IMG/VR virus record: IMGVR_UViG_3300020030_000056
Location: 1-6,414 of that record
Reading direction: 5' to 3' (one strand)
Source: a virus
Length of the DNA: 6,414 nucleotides
The position numbers and the translations under genes were made by a program. Within the stretch, counting starts at the first letter, position 1. The number at the start of each line of letters is the position of its first letter. Below, piece by piece: positions 1 to 6,414 of this stretch. The notes beneath the pieces were generated by a model that saw nothing but the letters and a program-made list of their open reading frames with translations, searched no databases and was not told the origin of the DNA.

Positions 1-121
1 GCAAATGAAGCCAAAGCAGTATCCACACTCGAAAAGTCAGGATGAAAAGCCTGATACGGAATAGGATTGACAGCAGAAGCCTGAGCACCAGAAGGTGAAG
101 AACCTGAACCAGCACCAGTCA
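1..121. repeat. Terminal redundancy, copy A (identical to 6294..6414); overlap from linearising a circular genome
   Basis: Base-by-base comparison shows 1..121 (gcaaatgaagccaaagcag...accagcaccagtca) is identical to 6294..6414. Reading frames continue seamlessly across the join. Confidence 0.97.
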
Positions 122-371
122 GAGCAGCAGAACCAGATATAAACGGATTTAAACCACGAGAAATCATAGCTTCGGGAGAATTATATTCTCGCGATTCATC
201 AACCATCTTTTCTTGCCAATCACGCTGCTTCTGAGCTTCCTTCATGTTAAACTGATTAGTAGTCTGAGTATTGCGAAAATTAGCACGATTAGCGCTAGAC
301 TGTTGCAATGTACCAAAAATACCACTAATAGCAGCACCAAGAAAGTGATGTTCATTTCTAGGAGAGAGCAT
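1..371 (-). CDS. DNA pilot / minor capsid protein VP2, N-terminal part; the gene continues across the circular junction into 6293..5570 (364 aa in total)
   Basis: ATG at complement 369..371 is preceded by TAGAAGTAGGAGAGAGT, a Shine-Dalgarno-like AGGAG. My translation is MLSPRNEHHFLGAAISGIFGTLQQSSANRANFRNTQTTNQFNMKEAQKQRDWQEKMVDESREYNSPEAMISRGLNPFISGSAALTGAGSGSSPSGAQASAVNPIPYQAFHPDFSSVDTALASFA.... It runs off position 1 in frame with ORF 5570..6319 (371 + 724 = 1095 nt = 365 codons). The QRDWQEKM...GLNPF block resembles the conserved N-terminal motif I recall in gokusho/alpavirus VP2 proteins (RDFQERMSNTAYQR...AGLNP). Confidence 0.88.
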   Translation of the reverse strand, partial: MLSPRNEHHFLGAAISGIFGTLQQSSANRANFRNTQTTNQFNMKEAQKQRDWQEKMVDESREYNSPEAMISRGLNPFISGSAALTGAGSGSSPSGAQASAVNPIPYQAFHPDFSSVDTALASF

Positions 372-394
372 ACTCTCTCCTACTTCTAAAAACC

Positions 395-838
395 TCATTG
401 TGCACTAGCGGCAGGGGCGGAATCCGTAGATGGCGCTGCCTGTTCCTCTGCCAGCATAGCCTGGGCGTATGCAGTCAATTCAGATTTCTCCTGAGACAAT
501 TGATTCAACACAGCCTGACGTTCAGACATTGTCTGGCAATGACGCGAGATAACACAAGCAAAACGCTCCTCATCTGTCATGCCGTCCATCACAGTAGATT
601 GAGTAGGATGCATTTGAGCAAGGATATCATTGACGTTCATATCGCCAAGCAAACGACGATACTTTTCTTGATTTAAAAGGATCTGAGTCATATCACATTG
701 AATCAGATCACCGTCAGGAGTCTCATCATACATAACCGGATCATAAACAGAAGCCTGATAACACGGATTGCCTTCCTTCAGCTCAGGAACATACGAATTC
801 TTTTCAAAATTCTCATTTTTATACGCAAAACTTCTCAT
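395..838 (-). CDS. Hypothetical 147-aa protein between VP1 and VP2; candidate internal scaffolding protein (VP3-like) by position only
   Basis: This is the track ORF 395..964 trimmed to the first ATG downstream of the VP1 stop (complement 836..838; VP1 stop is at 849..851). The product begins MRSFAYKNENFEKNSYVPELKEGNPCY... and ends in an Ala/Ser/Glu-rich tail. It shows T3 codon bias. The 5' extension to 964 is in the +1 frame of VP1 and is Leu/Ile-rich, so it looks like a shadow ORF. I recognise no family motif and function is inferred from gene order. Confidence 0.6.
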   Translation of the reverse strand: MRSFAYKNENFEKNSYVPELKEGNPCYQASVYDPVMYDETPDGDLIQCDMTQILLNQEKYRRLLGDMNVNDILAQMHPTQSTVMDGMTDEERFACVISRHCQTMSERQAVLNQLSQEKSELTAYAQAMLAEEQAAPSTDSAPAASAQ

Positions 839-848
839 AATCAATACA

Positions 849-2576
849 TTAATAAGGTAAACCATTTCTGTCCAAATTCTGCACAGCATAAACTTGGAAA
901 TTAACATTACATAAAAGCTGGTCGTAAGCAACGGAACAATTCTGACCTGAAACTTGAGGTTCAAAGATAGAGTTCAATTGCTGAGGACGAACTTTCATTG
1001 ACTGATAAGACCAAGTACCAGAAGAGGTCAGGACATCCCAACCGTCAATAGGAGCAGACCAAGACTGATACGCCATACCAGAGCGGAAAGCAGCATGAAC
1101 AGTATCAATATTAGACTTCCATTGCCAGTACCGAAGATTATAACCAAGAGCTTTAGAAACAGTACGAGACGGGTTATTCTGTAAGTTCAAAGCAGGAACA
1201 GGCTGCATACCTAATTGGTCGAATGCAGGTTGGGGGAAGTCAGTAATAGCCGAAACAGTCAACTGAGGATTCTGGCCAGTCAGATTCCAATCAACCATAG
1301 GAACAGCATGATATACACACATAATTACTTGATGTTCGGCACCACAATCATAAGTCAACGTATGACCAGAAGCAGAACCTACACCTTTACCAGCAATTAC
1401 GGCTTGAGAGTTAGCAGATTCCAAATTGGTATTCAAGACTTCGTTAATATTGATCACATTAGACCAACCTCCAATATAATGAGCGTGATTACCCATATAT
1501 TCAGGAGCCTTAATTCCGAATTGAGCCAGCATCTGATCTGAATAGTCTTTGCTAGAGAATTGAACAACTTCTTTCCAGCGCTGAAGGTATTCTGTAGCAC
1601 GAATTGAGAGGGCGGAGAGGTCTGAATTAAGAATAACAGCACGGCCAGAAGCACCAGCAGAGTCCACAGTAGAAACAGAACTAGAGTCTGATTGTTGAAT
1701 AAAGGTTCTATTTTGAGGTAAACCAACAGCAATCAAAGAATTACTAGGATCTTGAGGAAGAACAGTAGCCGGTAAAACAGCTACCGAGCCATATTGAGAT
1801 GAAGGAAGCATACCCATGAAGTAATCCTTCGGATAGTTAGCATAGCGGAGCTGAAGCATCTCAGGAGCGAGATCCAATTGAGATTTACCATCCCAATAAT
1901 CAACATTATAGGAATAAGCCAAGTGTTTTTCCCATTGAGAGTCAGAGAAGAAATCATAGTATATCTTCTGATAAGCCAACAACGGAAGAAGGTTTACAGT
2001 CTGACTAGCAGAATAAATCAAAGGATTAAGAATATCTTCAAGAGACTGAATCCCTAAATAAGATTTGGTAATAACAGCTTTAGCAGTATTCGAGGACGCA
2101 AGGAATGAACCATATCCAAGCATGTCTAATATCTTAGAGGCACCATAGACATAAGGAAGACCTGCATCATCGAAGACATCTTGACCATTAATCGTCTGAA
2201 GACTCAACGATATCAAGTTTAACGTTGTATTCGGTACAGAAGTCAACATCTCGGTATTAGCAGTATTACTAGCAGCGGACGTCATATAGTTCGTCATTTG
2301 AGTAAACGCCTGCGGGAGAGCACGAGAAATCAAGCGTAACGGCACTGCATAAAAATCATAGTACTCCTTAATACGAGTATATGCAGCCGTATTAACAGGA
2401 ACAGTACGAGTAAACCAATCAGAAGAAATACGATACTTGTTACCAGGGATAGCAATCTGCCAATAACAAGGAAGGATCTCCCCAACTTTTGCCGTAAATA
2501 GTTTTTTACTAGACAAATCAAAGGAAGAGCGATGCACGGCAACTTTCGCTCGATCCAGCGGATTAAAATCACTCAT
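849..2576 (-). CDS. Major capsid protein (Microviridae VP1 / phage F family)
   Basis: 575-aa ORF. The N-terminus HRSSFDLSSKKLFTAKVGEILPCYWQIAIPGNKY...EYYDFYAVPLRLI follows the microvirus capsid pattern: R-x-x-FDLS, then G-x-(L/I)-P, then PG(D/N), then D-x-(F/Y)-x-VP-x-R. Pronounced T at codon position 3. Size is typical of VP1. Confidence 0.95.
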   Translation of the reverse strand: MSDFNPLDRAKVAVHRSSFDLSSKKLFTAKVGEILPCYWQIAIPGNKYRISSDWFTRTVPVNTAAYTRIKEYYDFYAVPLRLISRALPQAFTQMTNYMTSAASNTANTEMLTSVPNTTLNLISLSLQTINGQDVFDDAGLPYVYGASKILDMLGYGSFLASSNTAKAVITKSYLGIQSLEDILNPLIYSASQTVNLLPLLAYQKIYYDFFSDSQWEKHLAYSYNVDYWDGKSQLDLAPEMLQLRYANYPKDYFMGMLPSSQYGSVAVLPATVLPQDPSNSLIAVGLPQNRTFIQQSDSSSVSTVDSAGASGRAVILNSDLSALSIRATEYLQRWKEVVQFSSKDYSDQMLAQFGIKAPEYMGNHAHYIGGWSNVININEVLNTNLESANSQAVIAGKGVGSASGHTLTYDCGAEHQVIMCVYHAVPMVDWNLTGQNPQLTVSAITDFPQPAFDQLGMQPVPALNLQNNPSRTVSKALGYNLRYWQWKSNIDTVHAAFRSGMAYQSWSAPIDGWDVLTSSGTWSYQSMKVRPQQLNSIFEPQVSGQNCSVAYDQLLCNVNFQVYAVQNLDRNGLPY

Positions 2577-2592
2577 AATTAATTAATTTAAA

Positions 2593-4419
2593 TTAGACCA
2601 TACGGTTAAATATATTGTTTGCATCATTCATTTTTTTATGCTTAATCATATCGCGACAGAAGGTAGCAGCACGGAAATCAAGACATTTTTGTAAGTCGCT
2701 ACTTTGCCCATTATCATAGGCACTTCTTGTATCGGGTTTCGCAGATTTAAAGTAATTACAAGTCGCGAGAGGTGGGATTCTGGGGTCATCAAACGGTACT
2801 CGTATTTGTTCTTTAATGGGACGAATAAATCCGTCTGCATACTCGCCGTCTTCACCGATACCAATGGTCGCCATTTCGCATCCTTCGGCTGGTAAATAGA
2901 AATACCGAAGCATAGGGGCAGACAAAGTCTGTTGTATTCGCAACGAATCACACATTCGTACATAGTCCGATTTCTTCTCATATTCTATTCCTGTTTTAAT
3001 GATAAATATAATACGATTGGTATAAGGATCAAGATTGCCTCCAATGAAAGGCAGATGCCAATTCCTGAGGAACTTACTGACATAAAGGAATAACCGATAC
3101 AATTTATTAACATAAGATTCAGTGTCGAAATCAACAGAACTAAAACAAAACCTAGTAGAACACCTAGCAGCATGTAAAACAATCTCATCATCATTAAATA
3201 AATTATTTTTAGTTAATGTAAGATATTTATAATAAGCACGGGTTATAGATAAAATAGAATCGGAATCATAAGCTATAATACCGAATCTTGCAATTCTTTT
3301 CGGCGCATCTGCAACAGCTCGAATAATTCTAGCAATCGCAACAGCATCGTCATAGCGAGCACTTGAGAATCGGGGGAGTAAAGTACGGATATACGACATA
3401 GGGGGAGTTGATTTAACACTAATCCCGTTGAAGTTATAGATTCGTCCATTAACGACAGAATCGATTTTTTGTTCAATCGCGTGATAGACGTCTTCACCTT
3501 CCTCAAAAACCTCGCCTTTCTCAAAAAATCCAAGAGACGCTCTTTGTCGGGGTTTAAATGCACAGCATGCTCGATATAATAAGGGAGCAGAACTAAGGCT
3601 GTTAACGTAACTCGCAACGTACGATGAAGCTCCACCGCGGGAAGTCTGAAAATCTGAACGACCGAACTTCCAACTCTTATCATGACACTGTCGTAATACC
3701 TTTGAGATTTGTTCCGAGTTTGTGAATAATAAGATATGATAATGCGGGCGGAAATGGACTGGTCCGTATTCACCCACAGCGTAGAAGTGTAACGTTTCAT
3801 AAGAACCTAAAGCTGTTTTTAAATGTTTACGTAATCGTTTAATATAGTTCTGAACATCGACATAATTCAGATAAGGGAGAAGATTATCTCCGTATCTAGC
3901 GGAAAGCTCTCCTTCTTTACCGTAAGGTGTAGCGGACTTCGTCTTAGCAATAAAGGAACGGATAGCATCCATAGAAAGAAACCAATTATCCTTAACTGGC
4001 TCATATTGAGATGATTCGCGGTTATACGGCACTGTACCCTGTACTTGTGTAAAGAATATATGACACAAGCGAGATGTATCTGAACAACTATATTCGGATA
4101 CCGGAATATACGAATGTTTTTCATAACCAAAAACTTTATCTCCTGAAATACTCAAAGCATCTTCATACTCACTATGCAGAACCTCACAATTCATCAAAGG
4201 AACATGCTCGTTATCATAAGTAAGTGTCACAAAATAAGAATACTTAAAAGCACTTCCAGCGGTCTTCACACGCATGGACGCTTTTTGAGCACGCTTATGA
4301 ATACAGTAATCACATTGTCCGCAGTCTACAGCAATACGATGACCTGTGTAACGATTAGTTATAAAAGAGCGATGCTGGCAATGATCAGCAGCTTTAAGTA
4401 ATTCAGGAGTATATTTCAT
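2593..4419 (-). CDS. Replication initiation protein (VP4 / gpA-like HUH rolling-circle endonuclease)
   Basis: 608-aa ORF. Motif I FVTLTYD is at aa 63-69 (nt 4213..4233). The HUH motif RPHYHILLF has H-Y-H at nt 3736..3744. The double-tyrosine motif SYVASYVNS has Tyr codons at 3619..3621 and 3607..3609 and closely resembles the phiX174 gpA YVAKYVNK catalytic site. There is an N-terminal Cys/His cluster, HCQH...CGQCDYC. Confidence 0.94.
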   Translation of the reverse strand: MKYTPELLKAADHCQHRSFITNRYTGHRIAVDCGQCDYCIHKRAQKASMRVKTAGSAFKYSYFVTLTYDNEHVPLMNCEVLHSEYEDALSISGDKVFGYEKHSYIPVSEYSCSDTSRLCHIFFTQVQGTVPYNRESSQYEPVKDNWFLSMDAIRSFIAKTKSATPYGKEGELSARYGDNLLPYLNYVDVQNYIKRLRKHLKTALGSYETLHFYAVGEYGPVHFRPHYHILLFTNSEQISKVLRQCHDKSWKFGRSDFQTSRGGASSYVASYVNSLSSAPLLYRACCAFKPRQRASLGFFEKGEVFEEGEDVYHAIEQKIDSVVNGRIYNFNGISVKSTPPMSYIRTLLPRFSSARYDDAVAIARIIRAVADAPKRIARFGIIAYDSDSILSITRAYYKYLTLTKNNLFNDDEIVLHAARCSTRFCFSSVDFDTESYVNKLYRLFLYVSKFLRNWHLPFIGGNLDPYTNRIIFIIKTGIEYEKKSDYVRMCDSLRIQQTLSAPMLRYFYLPAEGCEMATIGIGEDGEYADGFIRPIKEQIRVPFDDPRIPPLATCNYFKSAKPDTRSAYDNGQSSDLQKCLDFRAATFCRDMIKHKKMNDANNIFNRMV

Positions 4420-4421
4420 AA

Positions 4422-4730
4422 TTATTTCCTTTTATCAATCACTTGGAGACGACTACGCGGGCCAAACGAAATATGAATAAAGTCAGAATAAATAATAAGT
4501 TGGTCAAAAGGAGAAACATGATCAGAATAACCATAAATCATCTCAAGCAACTTGCTAAAACTAGTAGAACCGTAAGGTTTGATATCAATGGCTTCACCTA
4601 TCAGATGTTGGGAATTAGGAGCGCCATCACAAGCCTTATTCTGTTCAGGGGTGCGACGTGCGCTGGTCACTGTAAAATGAACATTAGAAAATAACAGATA
4701 CTCAAGAAAATGCATAAGAGAATAGTTCAT
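4422..4730 (-). CDS. Minimal zinc D-Ala-D-Ala carboxypeptidase-like peptidase, M15 family (putative cell-wall hydrolase/endolysin)
   Basis: 102-aa ORF. TSARRTPEQNKACDGAPNSQHLIGEAIDI plus DFIHISF matches the Peptidase_M15_3/VanY-type signature S-x-(Y/R)-R-x-x-x-x-N...S-x-H-x-x-G-x-A-x-D-(I/V)...H-(V/I)-(D/S). Putative Zn ligands are H42 (4605..4607), D49 (4584..4586) and H86 (4473..4475). Its stop is 2 nt before the VP4 ATG, and its ATG overlaps the upstream stop as ATGA. Confidence 0.8.
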   Translation of the reverse strand: MNYSLMHFLEYLLFSNVHFTVTSARRTPEQNKACDGAPNSQHLIGEAIDIKPYGSTSFSKLLEMIYGYSDHVSPFDQLIIYSDFIHISFGPRSRLQVIDKRK

Positions 4731-4810
4731 AATCCGATAGCATTAAGAATGTAACCAAGAGCAGCAGAAATAGCACCAATTACAATTTTCCAAACATTAT
4801 TACTTTTCAT
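4727..4810 (-). CDS. 27-aa hydrophobic (single transmembrane-like) peptide; candidate holin-like or membrane partner of the M15 peptidase
   Basis: ATG at complement 4808..4810. The product is MKSNNVWKIVIGAISAALGYILNAIGL. 18 of 27 codons end in T, matching the genome-wide coding bias. The TGA stop (4727..4729) overlaps the peptidase ATG (4728..4730) as ATGA, which suggests translational coupling. It is too short for the ORF track and corresponds to the C-terminal end of track ORF 4727..5068. Confidence 0.55.
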   Translation of the reverse strand: MKSNNVWKIVIGAISAALGYILNAIGL

Positions 4811-4994
4811 CGCTTTGAGTTTTAAGTTCAACAAAATTGCTTTCTTCCTTAATCGAGTCCACAATAATAATAAGACCCAGCGGAGAAACTCGCTCAGAAT
4901 AATTTCCAAGACCATCCAAAGAATTGACAATATAAGGCGCCATAACATCACGACCAGTCTGTTTGTCTTTAAGAGAGATAATAAATTTCTGCAT
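4800..4994 (-). CDS. Hypothetical 64-aa protein, first gene after the non-coding region
   Basis: The track ORF MQKFIISLKDKQTGRDVMAPYIVNSLDG... has a balanced soluble composition and clear T3 codon bias. The competing 113-aa frame is the +1 shadow. It overlaps the 27-aa peptide gene by 11 nt. I recognise no motif. Confidence 0.6.
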   Translation of the reverse strand: MQKFIISLKDKQTGRDVMAPYIVNSLDGLGNYSERVSPLGLIIIVDSIKEESNFVELKTQSDEK

Positions 4995-5110
4995 AATTGT
5001 AAAATTTTAAATGTTAATAATTTAATGAGTTGGTTTCTACAGGGGCAAAGGAAAAAAGTATTTTTCAAATAAACAAATAATTTGGAGTTTTTTTTTGGGA
5101 ATTAAGATTC

Positions 5111-5402
5111 TACAGCTGGGTGTGAGTTGTGCGTTTATGGACAAGAGAAAGGCGAAATTGAGATGATAACTCAATTTTCCTTCGGACACAACTAGGGGCT
5201 TCGCTTAAATAACAAAGCGGATGTATACAGGGTGTATAGACACGGCAGGTCAGATAGAACCTGCCTTTGCGCACCTACGTGCTAAAATACCGGAGCGGAA
5301 CGCTCCTCTAAGGAAGTCGCTCCGCTCCATTTTATACCAGGCCCTACGCGGGCGGCGGGTGTATATCCCTCAAGCGCCGGGATTGGCTTCTAGTCCTGAA
5401 GA
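5111..5402. other. GC-rich, hairpin-dense non-coding island (candidate complementary-strand origin, structured RNA or recombination site)
   Basis: No ORF with coding bias on either strand. Hand count gives 147 G+C in the 290 nt of 5111..5400 (about 51%) and 88/150 (about 59%) in 5241..5390, against roughly 37-45% in coding lines I spot-counted. Helices paired by eye are listed here. (a) 5125-5131/5187-5193, 7 bp, enclosing 5155-5162/5170-5177, 8 bp. (b) 5202-5206/5215-5219. (c) 5224-5229/5233-5238. (d) 5244-5250/5259-5265, 7 bp. (e) 5292-5299/5321-5328, 8 bp. (f) 5353-5357/5375-5379. Confidence 0.6.
5283..5328 (-). terminator. Candidate intrinsic terminator for the minus-strand transcription unit
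   Basis: The minus strand reads GGAGCGGA-(21 nt, partly paired)-TCCGCTCC followed by GGTATTTTAGC. That is an 8-bp GC-rich stem followed by a short interrupted U-tract (UAUUUU), located downstream of the last minus-strand ORF. The U-tract is weak. Confidence 0.3.
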
Positions 5403-5558
5403 TCATCGTGGAATAATATGATAAACCGGGAAATAATTAAGAGTTAAGGATTTATGCTTTTCCTCATAACAACGAATTTGGTCAAACACCTCATCCAAAG
5501 TTTTAAACACATAAGAAAACATCACATGTTGACGATTCATAATACGTAATTCAAACAT
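5403..5558 (-). CDS. Hypothetical 51-aa protein (below the ORF-track length cutoff)
   Basis: ATG at complement 5556..5558, 11 nt after the VP2 stop (5570..5572). TGA at 5403..5405. My translation is MFELRIMNRQHVMFSYVFKTLDEVFDQIRCYEEKHKSLTLNYFPVYHIIPR. About half the codons end in T, consistent with the genome's coding bias. No recognisable motif. Confidence 0.45.
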   Translation of the reverse strand: MFELRIMNRQHVMFSYVFKTLDEVFDQIRCYEEKHKSLTLNYFPVYHIIPR

Positions 5559-5569
5559 AACTATAAGTT

Positions 5570-6414
5570 TTAATAACCAATACCATTAGCTGAAGAGGGA
5601 TTACCACGAGAACTAAATTTGGGACGAGGAATATTCTGAATAAACTTCGTACCGTAATCTATAGTATTACGAAGGCCATAAGAATTAAAATCCTTTTTAG
5701 CATTTCCAGCAGACCATTTATAATAGTCACGAATAGCCTTATTCTTAGAATATTCAACACCCTTACGGATTCCAACATTTTTATAATCCCAAAGAGAATC
5801 ATAATACTGAGTATAATAAGCCATATTAGTAGCACTAATCAGAGCATCAGCAGTACGAAGAGCAATAGAATTATCAATTTTCTGACCCAAAGTCTGAGCA
5901 GAAATCTGAATAGCACGCTTTATTTCAGTACGAACCTGTTGCTTAGTTAAAGCGCCTTGCTGAACTAAGTTATACAAATACTGAGACTTTGTAAACAAGT
6001 CTGCTTGTTGTTGAGAATCCATATACTTATTCAGGATAGCTTGAGCATCAGACTGTAAATAAACCTGAGTAGTCTGAGCAGCCGAAAGCTTTCCTGCCGT
6101 AACAGCGTTCTCCAGTCGCTGACGCTCCATAGATTGGTCTAATTCAGCAGAAATACGACCTGTCTGCTTATTCCAATAACCAGATTCACCGATACCTATC
6201 TGCTTATAGTTCGTATCACCTTTCATCTTTTCAATCATATATGGCGTCATAGCATTAATCTGGTTAGACTCAGATATAAGTTTCTTAGCTTGAGCAAATG
6301 AAGCCAAAGCAGTATCCACACTCGAAAAGTCAGGATGAAAAGCCTGATACGGAATAGGATTGACAGCAGAAGCCTGAGCACCAGAAGGTGAAGAACCTGA
6401 ACCAGCACCAGTCA
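5570..6414 (-). CDS. DNA pilot / minor capsid protein VP2, C-terminal part (6294..6414 duplicates 1..121; same gene as 1..371)
   Basis: The frame is open from the window end down to TAA at 5570..5572. The track start at 6319 is a GTG (Val in ...DFSSVDTALASFAQAKK...) inside the continuous frame, not a real start. The product is Gln/Ala/Ser-rich and predicted helical, typical of microvirus pilot proteins. Confidence 0.88.
   Translation of the reverse strand, partial: TGAGSGSSPSGAQASAVNPIPYQAFHPDFSSVDTALASFAQAKKLISESNQINAMTPYMIEKMKGDTNYKQIGIGESGYWNKQTGRISAELDQSMERQRLENAVTAGKLSAAQTTQVYLQSDAQAILNKYMDSQQQADLFTKSQYLYNLVQQGALTKQQVRTEIKRAIQISAQTLGQKIDNSIALRTADALISATNMAYYTQYYDSLWDYKNVGIRKGVEYSKNKAIRDYYKWSAGNAKKDFNSYGLRNTIDYGTKFIQNIPRPKFSSRGNPSSANGIGY
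6294..6414. repeat. Terminal redundancy, copy B (identical to 1..121)
   Basis: Exact 121/121 identity with 1..121 by direct comparison. Confidence 0.97.

Follow-up and report, generated by a model that had tools for sequence, protein, structure and literature searches.

In the mammalian gut, the alpavirus-like and gokushovirus-like microviruses rank with the most abundant phages. The described lysis systems that come closest to what we report here for one such genome are of two kinds: tiny proteins of minimal phage genomes with a single transmembrane (TM) segment, such as phiX174 E, which targets MraY, and the levivirus LysM of 37 amino acids (aa), which targets MurJ; and the holin-endolysin cassettes of the phage T5 type, in which a small membrane-protein gene lies upstream of, and overlaps, the gene for a signal-less muralytic enzyme. 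Among the microviruses themselves only phiX174 has an established lysis mechanism, and none is on record for the alpa- and gokushoviruses, as a preceding sequence-only reading of the DNA studied here had supposed; their M15 peptidase was proposed as an endolysin in 2012, with no partner identified (PMC3394797), and later surveys have treated such peptidases as lysis-associated accessory genes while explicitly leaving overprinted genes unanalysed (PMC9239249). How does a peptidase that lacks a signal peptide reach the cell wall? A candidate answer is offered by a gene of 27 codons, here called pep27, that occupies positions 4727..4810 on the minus strand of IMG/VR virus record IMGVR_UViG_3300020030_000056 (positions 1 to 6,414 of that record, the whole 6,414-nucleotide stretch being referred to below as the window), adjoins the M15_3 peptidase gene at 4422..4730 (minus strand) and is present in every tested member of a very large lineage. 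In the literature that we searched, neither this peptide gene nor its association with the peptidase is described, and microviruses are nowhere connected with the smalltalk peptides of Bacteroidota.

pep27 is a real gene, strongly constrained at the protein level, that encodes a two-faced hydrophobic helix and always stands beside the peptidase gene in its lineage. Judged from sequence and setting, it is plausible, if somewhat short of probable, that pep27 and the M15 peptidase constitute a two-gene, holin-endolysin-like lysis module in which the peptide would act as a membrane-permeabilising oligomer; membrane insertion, topology, oligomerisation, permeabilisation and the role in lysis are steps that we only infer.

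pep27, a constrained gene at the peptidase start

Read on the minus strand, 4810..4727 runs ATG AAA AGT ... GGA TTA TGA and encodes MKSNNVWKIVIGAISAALGYILNAIGL, with a TGA that shares nucleotides with the ATG of the peptidase open reading frame (ORF) of 102 aa at 4730..4422 (TTATGAAC) in an ATGA stop/start overlap at 4727..4730 (minus strand) that places the peptidase in frame -1 relative to the peptide; translation of the minus strand thereby bore out both the ORF and the junction seen by the sequence-only reading. The ATG of pep27 in turn overlaps the stop of an upstream 64-aa ORF by 11 nucleotides (nt) (ATGAAAAGTAA, 4800..4810, minus strand), a second overlap that had gone unremarked before and that is kept in the relatives of the window's own lineage, defined below as group A. 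The previously reported bias towards codons ending in T is likewise present, with 18/27 such codons in pep27 (0.67) as against 0.45-0.58 in the neighbouring genes and 5/32 and 12/31 in the alternative frames.

Of 18 whole-genome relatives taken from GenBank, whose peptidases are 37-88% identical to that of the window, 17 have a short hydrophobic ORF whose end coincides with the peptidase start or lies just ahead of it. Group A, the lineage of the window, includes mar56, whose peptidase is only 54% identical, and its peptides follow the pattern M-x(3-6)-W[KR]IIIGAVSAALGY[IV]LN[AST][IL]GL; group B, made up of Dulem 236/257, bajarodmic 410/1134 and mar62, has peptides of the form MKSETKSKIWSAIIAAAVSLLTSIAQIFS; and the peptide of bajarodmic 1034 (L018) reads MSTKNKTFETILRVIIAVASALAGAFGYSQF. 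A tblastn search with the group-A peptide returned 35 phage records, exactly those that carry a group-A peptidase, and in 35/35 the matching gene is intact and abuts the peptidase. None of these 35 records annotates it separately (0/35), so the ORF is indeed as unannotated as had been claimed. When IMG/VR was scanned with a peptidase alignment, 229 relatives were obtained, of which the best 80 were inspected and 77 had enough upstream sequence; pep27 is intact and adjacent to the peptidase in all 77 of these testable group-A loci, one of which (L024) uses a GTG start for the peptide. For group B, a peptide of the same architecture precedes the orthologous peptidase in 11/11 genomes, and a tblastn search with the group-B peptide gave no matches, low-complexity masking being the probable cause. 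One of the IMG/VR relatives (L025, about 330-470) has undergone a 33-nt tandem duplication of the junction between peptide end and peptidase start, such that a short additional ORF separates an intact peptide from the peptidase.

Is it the peptide that selection preserves, or the nucleic acid? Over 73 ungapped genomes, with the overlapping ends left out, the ratio of nonsynonymous to synonymous substitution rates (dN/dS) is 0.066 in the pep27 frame, as opposed to 1.16 and 9.6 in the alternative ones, and ten divergent GenBank relatives give a similar pattern. Because synonymous differences are abundant (proportion pS 0.40-0.56), whereas amino acid changes are rare and conservative, and this in the pep27 frame only, the constraint acts on a protein and not on a nucleic-acid element. 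The view that pep27 is no gene at all, but a chance ORF or a stretch conserved at the nucleic-acid level, could draw on the fact that 27-codon ORFs are common in AT-rich DNA, where a single one is not significant, and on the missing annotator calls in the 35 GenBank relatives; it is the conservation that lifts pep27 above chance, and frame-specific selection, together with an ORF that is intact in more than 110 genomes, effectively refutes this view. We regard it as virtually certain that pep27 is a translated gene, and one under tighter constraint than its neighbour, given that the dN/dS of the peptidase is 0.205.

In the records of Dulem virus 238, 226 and 243 (L007 3985-4359, L008 3935-4309 and L009 3998-4372, respectively), the deposited peptidase or hypothetical coding sequence is longer by 21 N-terminal codons (MENHHWCCLCC...). 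This extension, considered as a genuine part of the peptidase and rejected, is the peptidase frame read back across pep27, and the selection signal lies in the peptide frame instead; the three extended coding sequences are probably mis-annotations that hide the conserved peptide gene. Microvirus annotation pipelines systematically omit pep27, and some records carry a spurious N-terminal extension of the peptidase in its place.

The product has a short Lys-containing N-terminus followed by a hydrophobic helix of ~20 residues that reaches the C-terminus (mean Kyte-Doolittle hydropathy 2.03 over residues 9-27), which agrees with the polar start and hydrophobic stretch noted earlier, and it is very probably a membrane helix. 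Across 31 distinct group-A peptide sequences, residues N5, W7, I11, G12, A13, S15, A16, A17, G19, Y20, L22, N23 and G26 are invariant, and variation is limited to I/V/L (and A/S/T) swaps at positions 10, 14, 21, 24 and 25. On a helical wheel G12, S15, G19, N23 and G26 line up as a single stripe (resultant 0.88 at 100 degrees, permutation p 0.003) and the variability vector points to the opposite face, at 284 degrees, which is 184 degrees from the stripe (p 0.006); the invariant residues as a whole cover about three quarters of the helix circumference. Such a two-faced pattern would suit a TM helix that packs tightly through a glycine-zipper-like interface and turns its back to the lipids, and a related smalltalk-type microviral peptide gives a weak match to the Pfam 'Glycine zipper 2TM' model. 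Since the positive charges are N-terminal, the positive-inside rule would predict an N-in/C-out topology.

The M15 peptidase and a possible lysis module

The presumed muralytic partner is a putative LAS-type zinc peptidase that matches Pfam PF08291 (Peptidase_M15_3; E 7.9e-10, 39.3 bits against a cutoff of 23.2), with the match spanning only positions 43-108 of the profile, and PHROG 894 'endolysin' (E 1.5e-15). It carries an SxHxxGxAxD...H zinc-ligand motif, and its residues H42, D49 and H86 do not vary among 16 diverse and 26 close sequences. The nearest PDB sequence is that of the phage T5 L-alanyl-D-glutamate peptidase (2MXZ, E 0.0027), and an AlphaFold2 model, built from a shallow alignment and of moderate confidence (predicted local distance difference test score 71.6), has as its top Foldseek match 1LBU, the M15 archetype (probability 0.95, E 0.047, template-modelling score 0.46). 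That the enzyme has neither a signal peptide nor a membrane anchor, as the sequence-only reading had it, is upheld by a maximum 17-residue hydropathy of 1.04 and by an N-terminus without positive charge. The peptidase family comprises 1775 clusters at 90% identity, and because the best 120 of these 1775 are all 97-104 aa long (and come from ~6 kb contigs), there are no N-terminally extended forms among the close relatives. As the nearest cellular homologues, with at most 44% identity, are almost all found in Bacteroidales, the host is presumably a member of this order, and the window represents an alpavirus-like gut microvirus that most likely infects Bacteroidales.

Are the peptide and the peptidase perhaps one protein in two pieces? 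It is conceivable that pep27 is a detached or recoded signal anchor, that is, the TM domain of the peptidase itself, joined to it by frameshifting or read-through or tethering it in trans, much as in the signal-anchor-release (SAR) endolysins that work with pinholins (phage 21, P1 Lyz), which share with the window the combination of a weakly hydrophobic, Gly/Ala/Ser-rich TM segment and a muralytic enzyme. The TM segment of the peptide is 42% Gly/Ala/Ser/Thr, part-way to the composition of a SAR domain; the two genes of group B are in the same frame, split by a stop (TAA or TAG) and one sense codon before the ATG; and two database proteins, P0069 and P0080 (133 aa), look like natural fusions. 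However, the latter are artefacts, the DNA having a TAG stop that the gene caller read as Gln, and they were dismissed as fusions. Moreover, the frame relation is inconsistent, being -1 in all group-A relatives and in mar62, where the [TC]TATGA overlap is kept, and 0 in group B, with a 25-nt spacer in bajarodmic 1034. Because the junction differs in this way between lineages, peptide and peptidase must be separate proteins and not a recoded fusion; with no slippery heptamer found at the junction either, programmed frameshifting or read-through is rejected. Unlike a SAR domain, the TM segment of the window is thus a separate polypeptide in variable frames, and the uniform length of the peptidases in the best 120 clusters leaves no fused form among the close relatives. 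All in all, a detached anchor is very unlikely.

Two observations on the records themselves may be added here. The database translations of P0069, P0080 and P0216 (L267 156-557, L268 794-1195 and L276 8001-8193) were made with TAG read as Gln and TGA as Trp, and these alternative codes generate false fusions and false extensions. On one group-B contig (L267 240-262) the canonical peptidase ATG is ATA (GTC ATA AAT GCC AAG TTA ATG); since the ATG is replaced, this peptidase would start either at a rare initiator or at a conserved Met six codons downstream.

How, then, might two separate proteins act together? In the reading that we favour, the 27-residue product would insert into the cytoplasmic membrane as a single helix, with its Lys-bearing N-terminus in the cytoplasm and its C-terminus at the outer leaflet, and helices would pack tightly against one another through the invariant stripe of G12, S15, G19, N23 and G26, most likely to form an oligomer of the peptide itself. 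Such an assembly would compromise the membrane late in infection, whereby the co-expressed, signal-less M15 peptidase would gain access to the peptidoglycan, and the two together would make up a lysis module of less than 400 nt that is holin-endolysin-like in its logic. The membrane half of a lysis module is the best supported role for the peptide because the pairing is found again in chromosomal clusters and larger phages as well as in three arrangements among microviruses, and because the enzyme has no other way to the murein. With a holin, pep27 shares that it encodes a small protein with at least one TM domain (predicted from hydropathy) and that its gene adjoins a putative endolysin gene; with the T5 cassette, the window shares the gene order, the overlap and a signal-less enzyme of the same M15/LAS class.

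Larger phages provide a further comparison. On contigs of double-stranded DNA (dsDNA) phages and prophages, a short TM ORF ends within -40..+12 nt of the start in 45/154 M15 homologues, as compared with a background rate of 9.4% at the starts of other long ORFs of the same loci, an enrichment of about three-fold. Four of the dsDNA contigs (L175 2753-2839, L174 2795-2893, L144 2732-2842 and L180 2885-3001) have single-TM ORFs of 28-38 aa that overlap the M15 peptidase start and end in basic C-terminal tails (e.g. MGLKIVLLIASIGYTISKWIEIYKRRKK); these are candidate mini-holins of another architecture, with the TM segment first and the charged tail last. Mechanistic precedents, none with any sequence relationship to the window peptide, also exist outside lysis cassettes. 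The type I toxin peptides TisB (29 aa) and DinQ (27 aa) show that the inner membrane can be depolarised by peptides of such a length, and in Serratia the holin-like ChiW is combined with ChiX, an M15/LAS-type endopeptidase, for secretion outside classical phage lysis, a pairing that parallels, in mechanism only, the chromosomal smalltalk-M15 clusters described below.

What weighs against such a module lies partly in the peptide and its locus, as set out here, and partly in the sequence and distribution of smalltalk relatives, as set out in the next section. Compared with the holins of tailed phages, the window peptide is a mere 27 residues long with a single TM helix, sits in a 6.3-kb single-stranded DNA microvirus and lacks a charged cytoplasmic C-terminal tail; it stops inside its hydrophobic helix (...ILNAIGL-COOH), and all of its relatives do likewise. 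To our knowledge, a single helix of 27 residues is far smaller than any known holin. Holins are typically very diverse, so the strong conservation of pep27, much higher than theirs, is unusual for one of them. The peptide matches no holin family, its best match among the PHROGs being 'hemolysin' at E 0.25 and its sole match in Pfam being DUF6486, below threshold. The release of an enzyme of 11.7 kDa by one 27-residue helix is a further difficulty. As for the translational coupling that the sequence-only reading drew from the ATGA, the overlap is real but not specific, as every junction in the gene block overlaps or nearly does so, and compactness of this kind makes it weak evidence for a pairing. 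The holin-endolysin pair proposed in that reading is backed by the signal-less T5-like enzyme and the recurrent pairing, whereas the missing charged tail, the missing holin family and the independent assortment of the two genes (see below) speak against it. There is a substantial chance that the mechanism of pep27 differs from that of classical holins.

Smalltalk-type peptides and the rival explanations

The smalltalk proteins (NCBIfam NF033879; Pfam DUF6486) are Bacteroidota peptides of roughly 30 aa which, like the window peptide, consist of Met, a Lys-rich stretch of 4-8 residues and a helix; no functional literature on smalltalk or DUF6486 was found. The peptide of bajarodmic 1034, encoded 25 nt upstream of a full-length M15 peptidase, is a clear member (43.9 bits against a cutoff of 22.7 for Pfam DUF6486, 38.2 against 24.7 for NF033879 'smalltalk protein'). 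Used as a tblastn query it returned 24 phage records (20 named microviruses and 4 unannotated 'Bacteriophage sp.' contigs, 4-13 kb), six of which were fetched, namely bajarodmic 622, 324, 419 and 1012 and Dulem 247 and 251. Three of the six peptides were scanned (L269, L271 and L274) and score 30-46 bits with the curated families; those of L270, L272 and L273 are at least 77% identical to a scanned peptide and reach 65-72 bits with a profile made from the same set. Taken over L018, L269, L271, L274 and the chromosomal copies, the curated models give 27-53 bits. Between genomes whose VP1 share only 28-46%, smalltalk-type peptides are 72-88% identical, and their genes have a nt identity of 67-77% with saturated synonymous sites, which argues for ancient divergence under strong purifying selection and not for recent transfer. 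A degenerate DNA pattern for these peptides had 0 exact matches across IMG/VR, and protein-database searches with the peptides retrieved only over-extended ORF calls and one chromosomal smalltalk.

On chromosomal contigs of 43-83 kb, a 30-aa smalltalk gene follows a HU-HIG DNA-binding gene where a capsule locus ends, and its core is identical to that of the bajarodmic 622 peptide at 17/18 positions of the protein, at 72% nt identity. In four such contigs from JGI (L276-L279, 43-83 kb) the HU-HIG and smalltalk genes close a capsule-polysaccharide biosynthesis locus, and two of the four have a 60-aa muramidase-domain fragment two genes upstream. Among 64 bacterial loci chosen solely for encoding an M15_3 homologue, one has the order HU-HIG, smalltalk, M15_3 (L230), another has smalltalk directly followed by M15_3 (L208), and a third, from Prevotella jejuni (L221), has M15_3, HU-HIG, smalltalk; the smalltalk genes at these three loci and at L203 were confirmed with curated models, and the M15 proteins of the chromosomal smalltalk loci have no obvious signal peptide at their start. 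The fourth locus, L203 (389-5715), is a scaffold of Caecibacteroides pullorum with the closest cellular homologue of the window peptidase (44% in the best segment), which comes after a 442-aa ORF that matches Rep_trans weakly and has a 44-aa smalltalk-like ORF 3.4 kb downstream; it may be an integrated small element. The chromosomal peptides of L230 (3577-3669), L208 (443-535) and L221 (5559-5651) end in ...SVQSC[LM] or ...GVTSCM; given also their hydrophobic core and Lys-rich start, they look like a stand-alone lipoprotein signal peptide that all but stops at a lipobox-like Cys, a Cys that is not conserved in the viral copies.

Is the window peptide a smalltalk protein? It has the architecture of one (~30 aa, a polar Lys-rich N-terminus, a single Ala/Gly/Ser-rich helix and a Bacteroidota-associated setting), it shares with clear members (bajarodmic 1034 and the chromosomal loci L230 and L208) the position upstream of M15_3, and an hhalign comparison of group A with the smalltalk-type microviral peptides yields a probability of 83% (E 9e-6) over 13 columns of the TM core. 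Nevertheless, it aligns with DUF6486 end to end at only 12.3 bits against the cutoff of 22.7, has no match to NF033879, and is equalled or exceeded by 177/2000 architecture-preserving shuffles when scored against a smalltalk hidden Markov model (p 0.09). On these three counts we have not accepted it as a proven member. The resemblance is one of architecture and position, which may reflect either divergence beyond recognition or replacement by an analogue.

The two genes assort independently of each other. No M15 peptidase was detected in the six peptide-carrying microviruses by tblastn or by hidden Markov model search (0/6), and their other accessory ORFs contain no muralytic Pfam domain. Conversely, the peptidase occurs without the peptide in two genomes. 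One is mar63, whose genome contains no small TM ORF at all, even though its VP1 shares 64% identity with the VP1 of the peptide-bearing mar62. The other is phiHBP1 of B. fragilis, the earliest Bacteroidota microvirus to be cultured (PMC13064476); its M15 peptidase is full-length but encoded elsewhere, behind VP4, and a peptide of this kind is missing. The conserved small ORF that the sequence-only reading proposed to look for upstream of related M15 genes is thus intact throughout groups A and B and missing from these two genomes. As both peptide-only and peptidase-only microviruses exist, neither gene strictly needs the other.

These genomes are the starting point of the main rival, according to which the peptide would bring about lysis by itself, its invariant helix surface binding a host membrane protein that is conserved and acts in the making of cell-wall precursors, with the peptidase a dispensable accessory that would hasten or finish the breakdown of the wall. 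The six microviruses with a smalltalk-type peptide and without a peptidase or other muralytic gene must, after all, lyse their hosts. Like phiX174 E and LysM, pep27 specifies a tiny single-TM protein in a minimal phage genome, and two further traits bring it close to such single-gene lysis (Sgl) proteins, namely a strongly constrained helix surface suggestive of a specific membrane target and relatives in genomes without a muralytic enzyme. The peptide is held more tightly than the peptidase (dN/dS 0.066 vs 0.205), the invariance of some three quarters of the helix circumference is what a protein-protein interface would entail, and the smalltalk-type peptides have kept their high identity between genomes with capsid proteins that share 26-46% and despite saturated synonymous sites; the near-identity of viral and chromosomal smalltalk cores (17/18) would fit a conserved host target better than a lysis module. 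Sgl proteins of 37 aa exist (PMC12506998), which sets a precedent for the size. On the other hand, the peptide-only genomes carry clear smalltalk proteins, to which the homology of group A is unproven, and in the window's own lineage the peptide never occurs without the peptidase. The peptide differs from phiX174 E in that its gene is not embedded in another one, overlapping its neighbours by just 11 and 4 nt, and in that it has no sequence similarity to E, no PHROG match and no proline in its helix. A proline in the TM domain is essential to E. Lastly, chromosomal smalltalk genes stand beside hydrolase genes, an odd place for a lethal inhibitor of wall synthesis. Lysis by the peptide by itself is an unlikely but serious alternative.

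Could the peptide have nothing to do with lysis? A membrane peptide might serve in superinfection exclusion, tether replication or assembly, or mimic the host's smalltalk, and its position would then merely follow from the fact that the accessory genes of these genomes all sit between the pilot and the replication genes. It is in line with such a role that the smalltalk/DUF6486 family has no assigned function, that the chromosomal copies lie beside HU-HIG genes at capsule loci where a hydrolase is not always adjacent, that the peptide-only microviruses have the gene usually just upstream of VP4 but also after it, that peptide and peptidase assort independently, and that viral and host cores are nearly identical as proteins. 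Against it, three arrangements in microviruses and no fewer than three chromosomal loci place a smalltalk-type or smalltalk-like peptide beside a signal-less M15 peptidase, which exceeds what a shared locus would lead one to expect; the 6-kb genomes offer no other lysis candidate; and small TM ORFs are, as mentioned, about three-fold enriched at M15 starts in larger phages. A non-lytic role is rather unlikely, and slightly more so than lysis by the peptide by itself.

A broader and equally doubtful proposal would bring the module together with the genomes that have only half of it. Smalltalk-type peptides, with the 27-mer as a divergent or convergent member, may be ultra-small membrane effectors that gate signal-less M15 hydrolases, common to Bacteroidales chromosomes and microviruses. 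Microviruses with both genes would then bring a complete mini lysis cassette, those with the peptide only would hijack a host smalltalk-associated hydrolase, and those with the peptidase only (mar63, phiHBP1) would rely on the host's smalltalk. If true, this would be the first lysis mechanism for microviruses other than phiX174, with the smallest holin-like protein known, and it would give a function to an orphan Bacteroidota gene family. In any case, microvirus accessory genes are now linked to smalltalk peptides that stand beside the same kind of hydrolase, which suggests a function for that family, and the question of lysis in this lineage has become directly testable.

Genome setting and gene block

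With a unit of 6293 nt and a terminal redundancy of 121 nt, the window represents a microvirus genome that is circular and complete; the exact 121-nt direct repeat at 1-121 and 6294-6414 is the assembly signature of a circular genome. Its nearest GenBank records, at ~86% nt identity, are 'Dulem virus' microviruses from lemur faeces and a human-derived Microvirus sp. All of its genes are on the minus strand, among them those for the major capsid protein VP1 (849-2576, with a Phage_F match), the replication initiator VP4 (2593-4419, with a REP_ORF2-G2P match) and the pilot protein (5570-6319 and beyond).

The block that contains pep27 is tightly packed in the order ORF64, pep27, peptidase, VP4. 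Its first gene, ORF64 (4800..4994), encodes a hydrophilic 64-aa protein that is annotated as 'hypothetical protein' in relatives, has homologues in groups A and B and has no match in Pfam, PHROG or NCBIfam. In mar63, where the peptide is missing, the ORF64 homologue overlaps the peptidase start directly (ATGA).

A non-coding stretch of 408 nt (4995-5402) separates ORF64 from a 51-aa ORF. Rfam and tRNA scans of the window, this stretch included, gave no match. It is 72-84% identical at the nt level across group-A relatives, about as much as coding DNA, is locally GC-rich (up to 59% GC in a genome of 39% GC) and folds into G+C-rich hairpins at 5246-5267 and at 5292-5328. An origin, a promoter or a packaging region may lie here.

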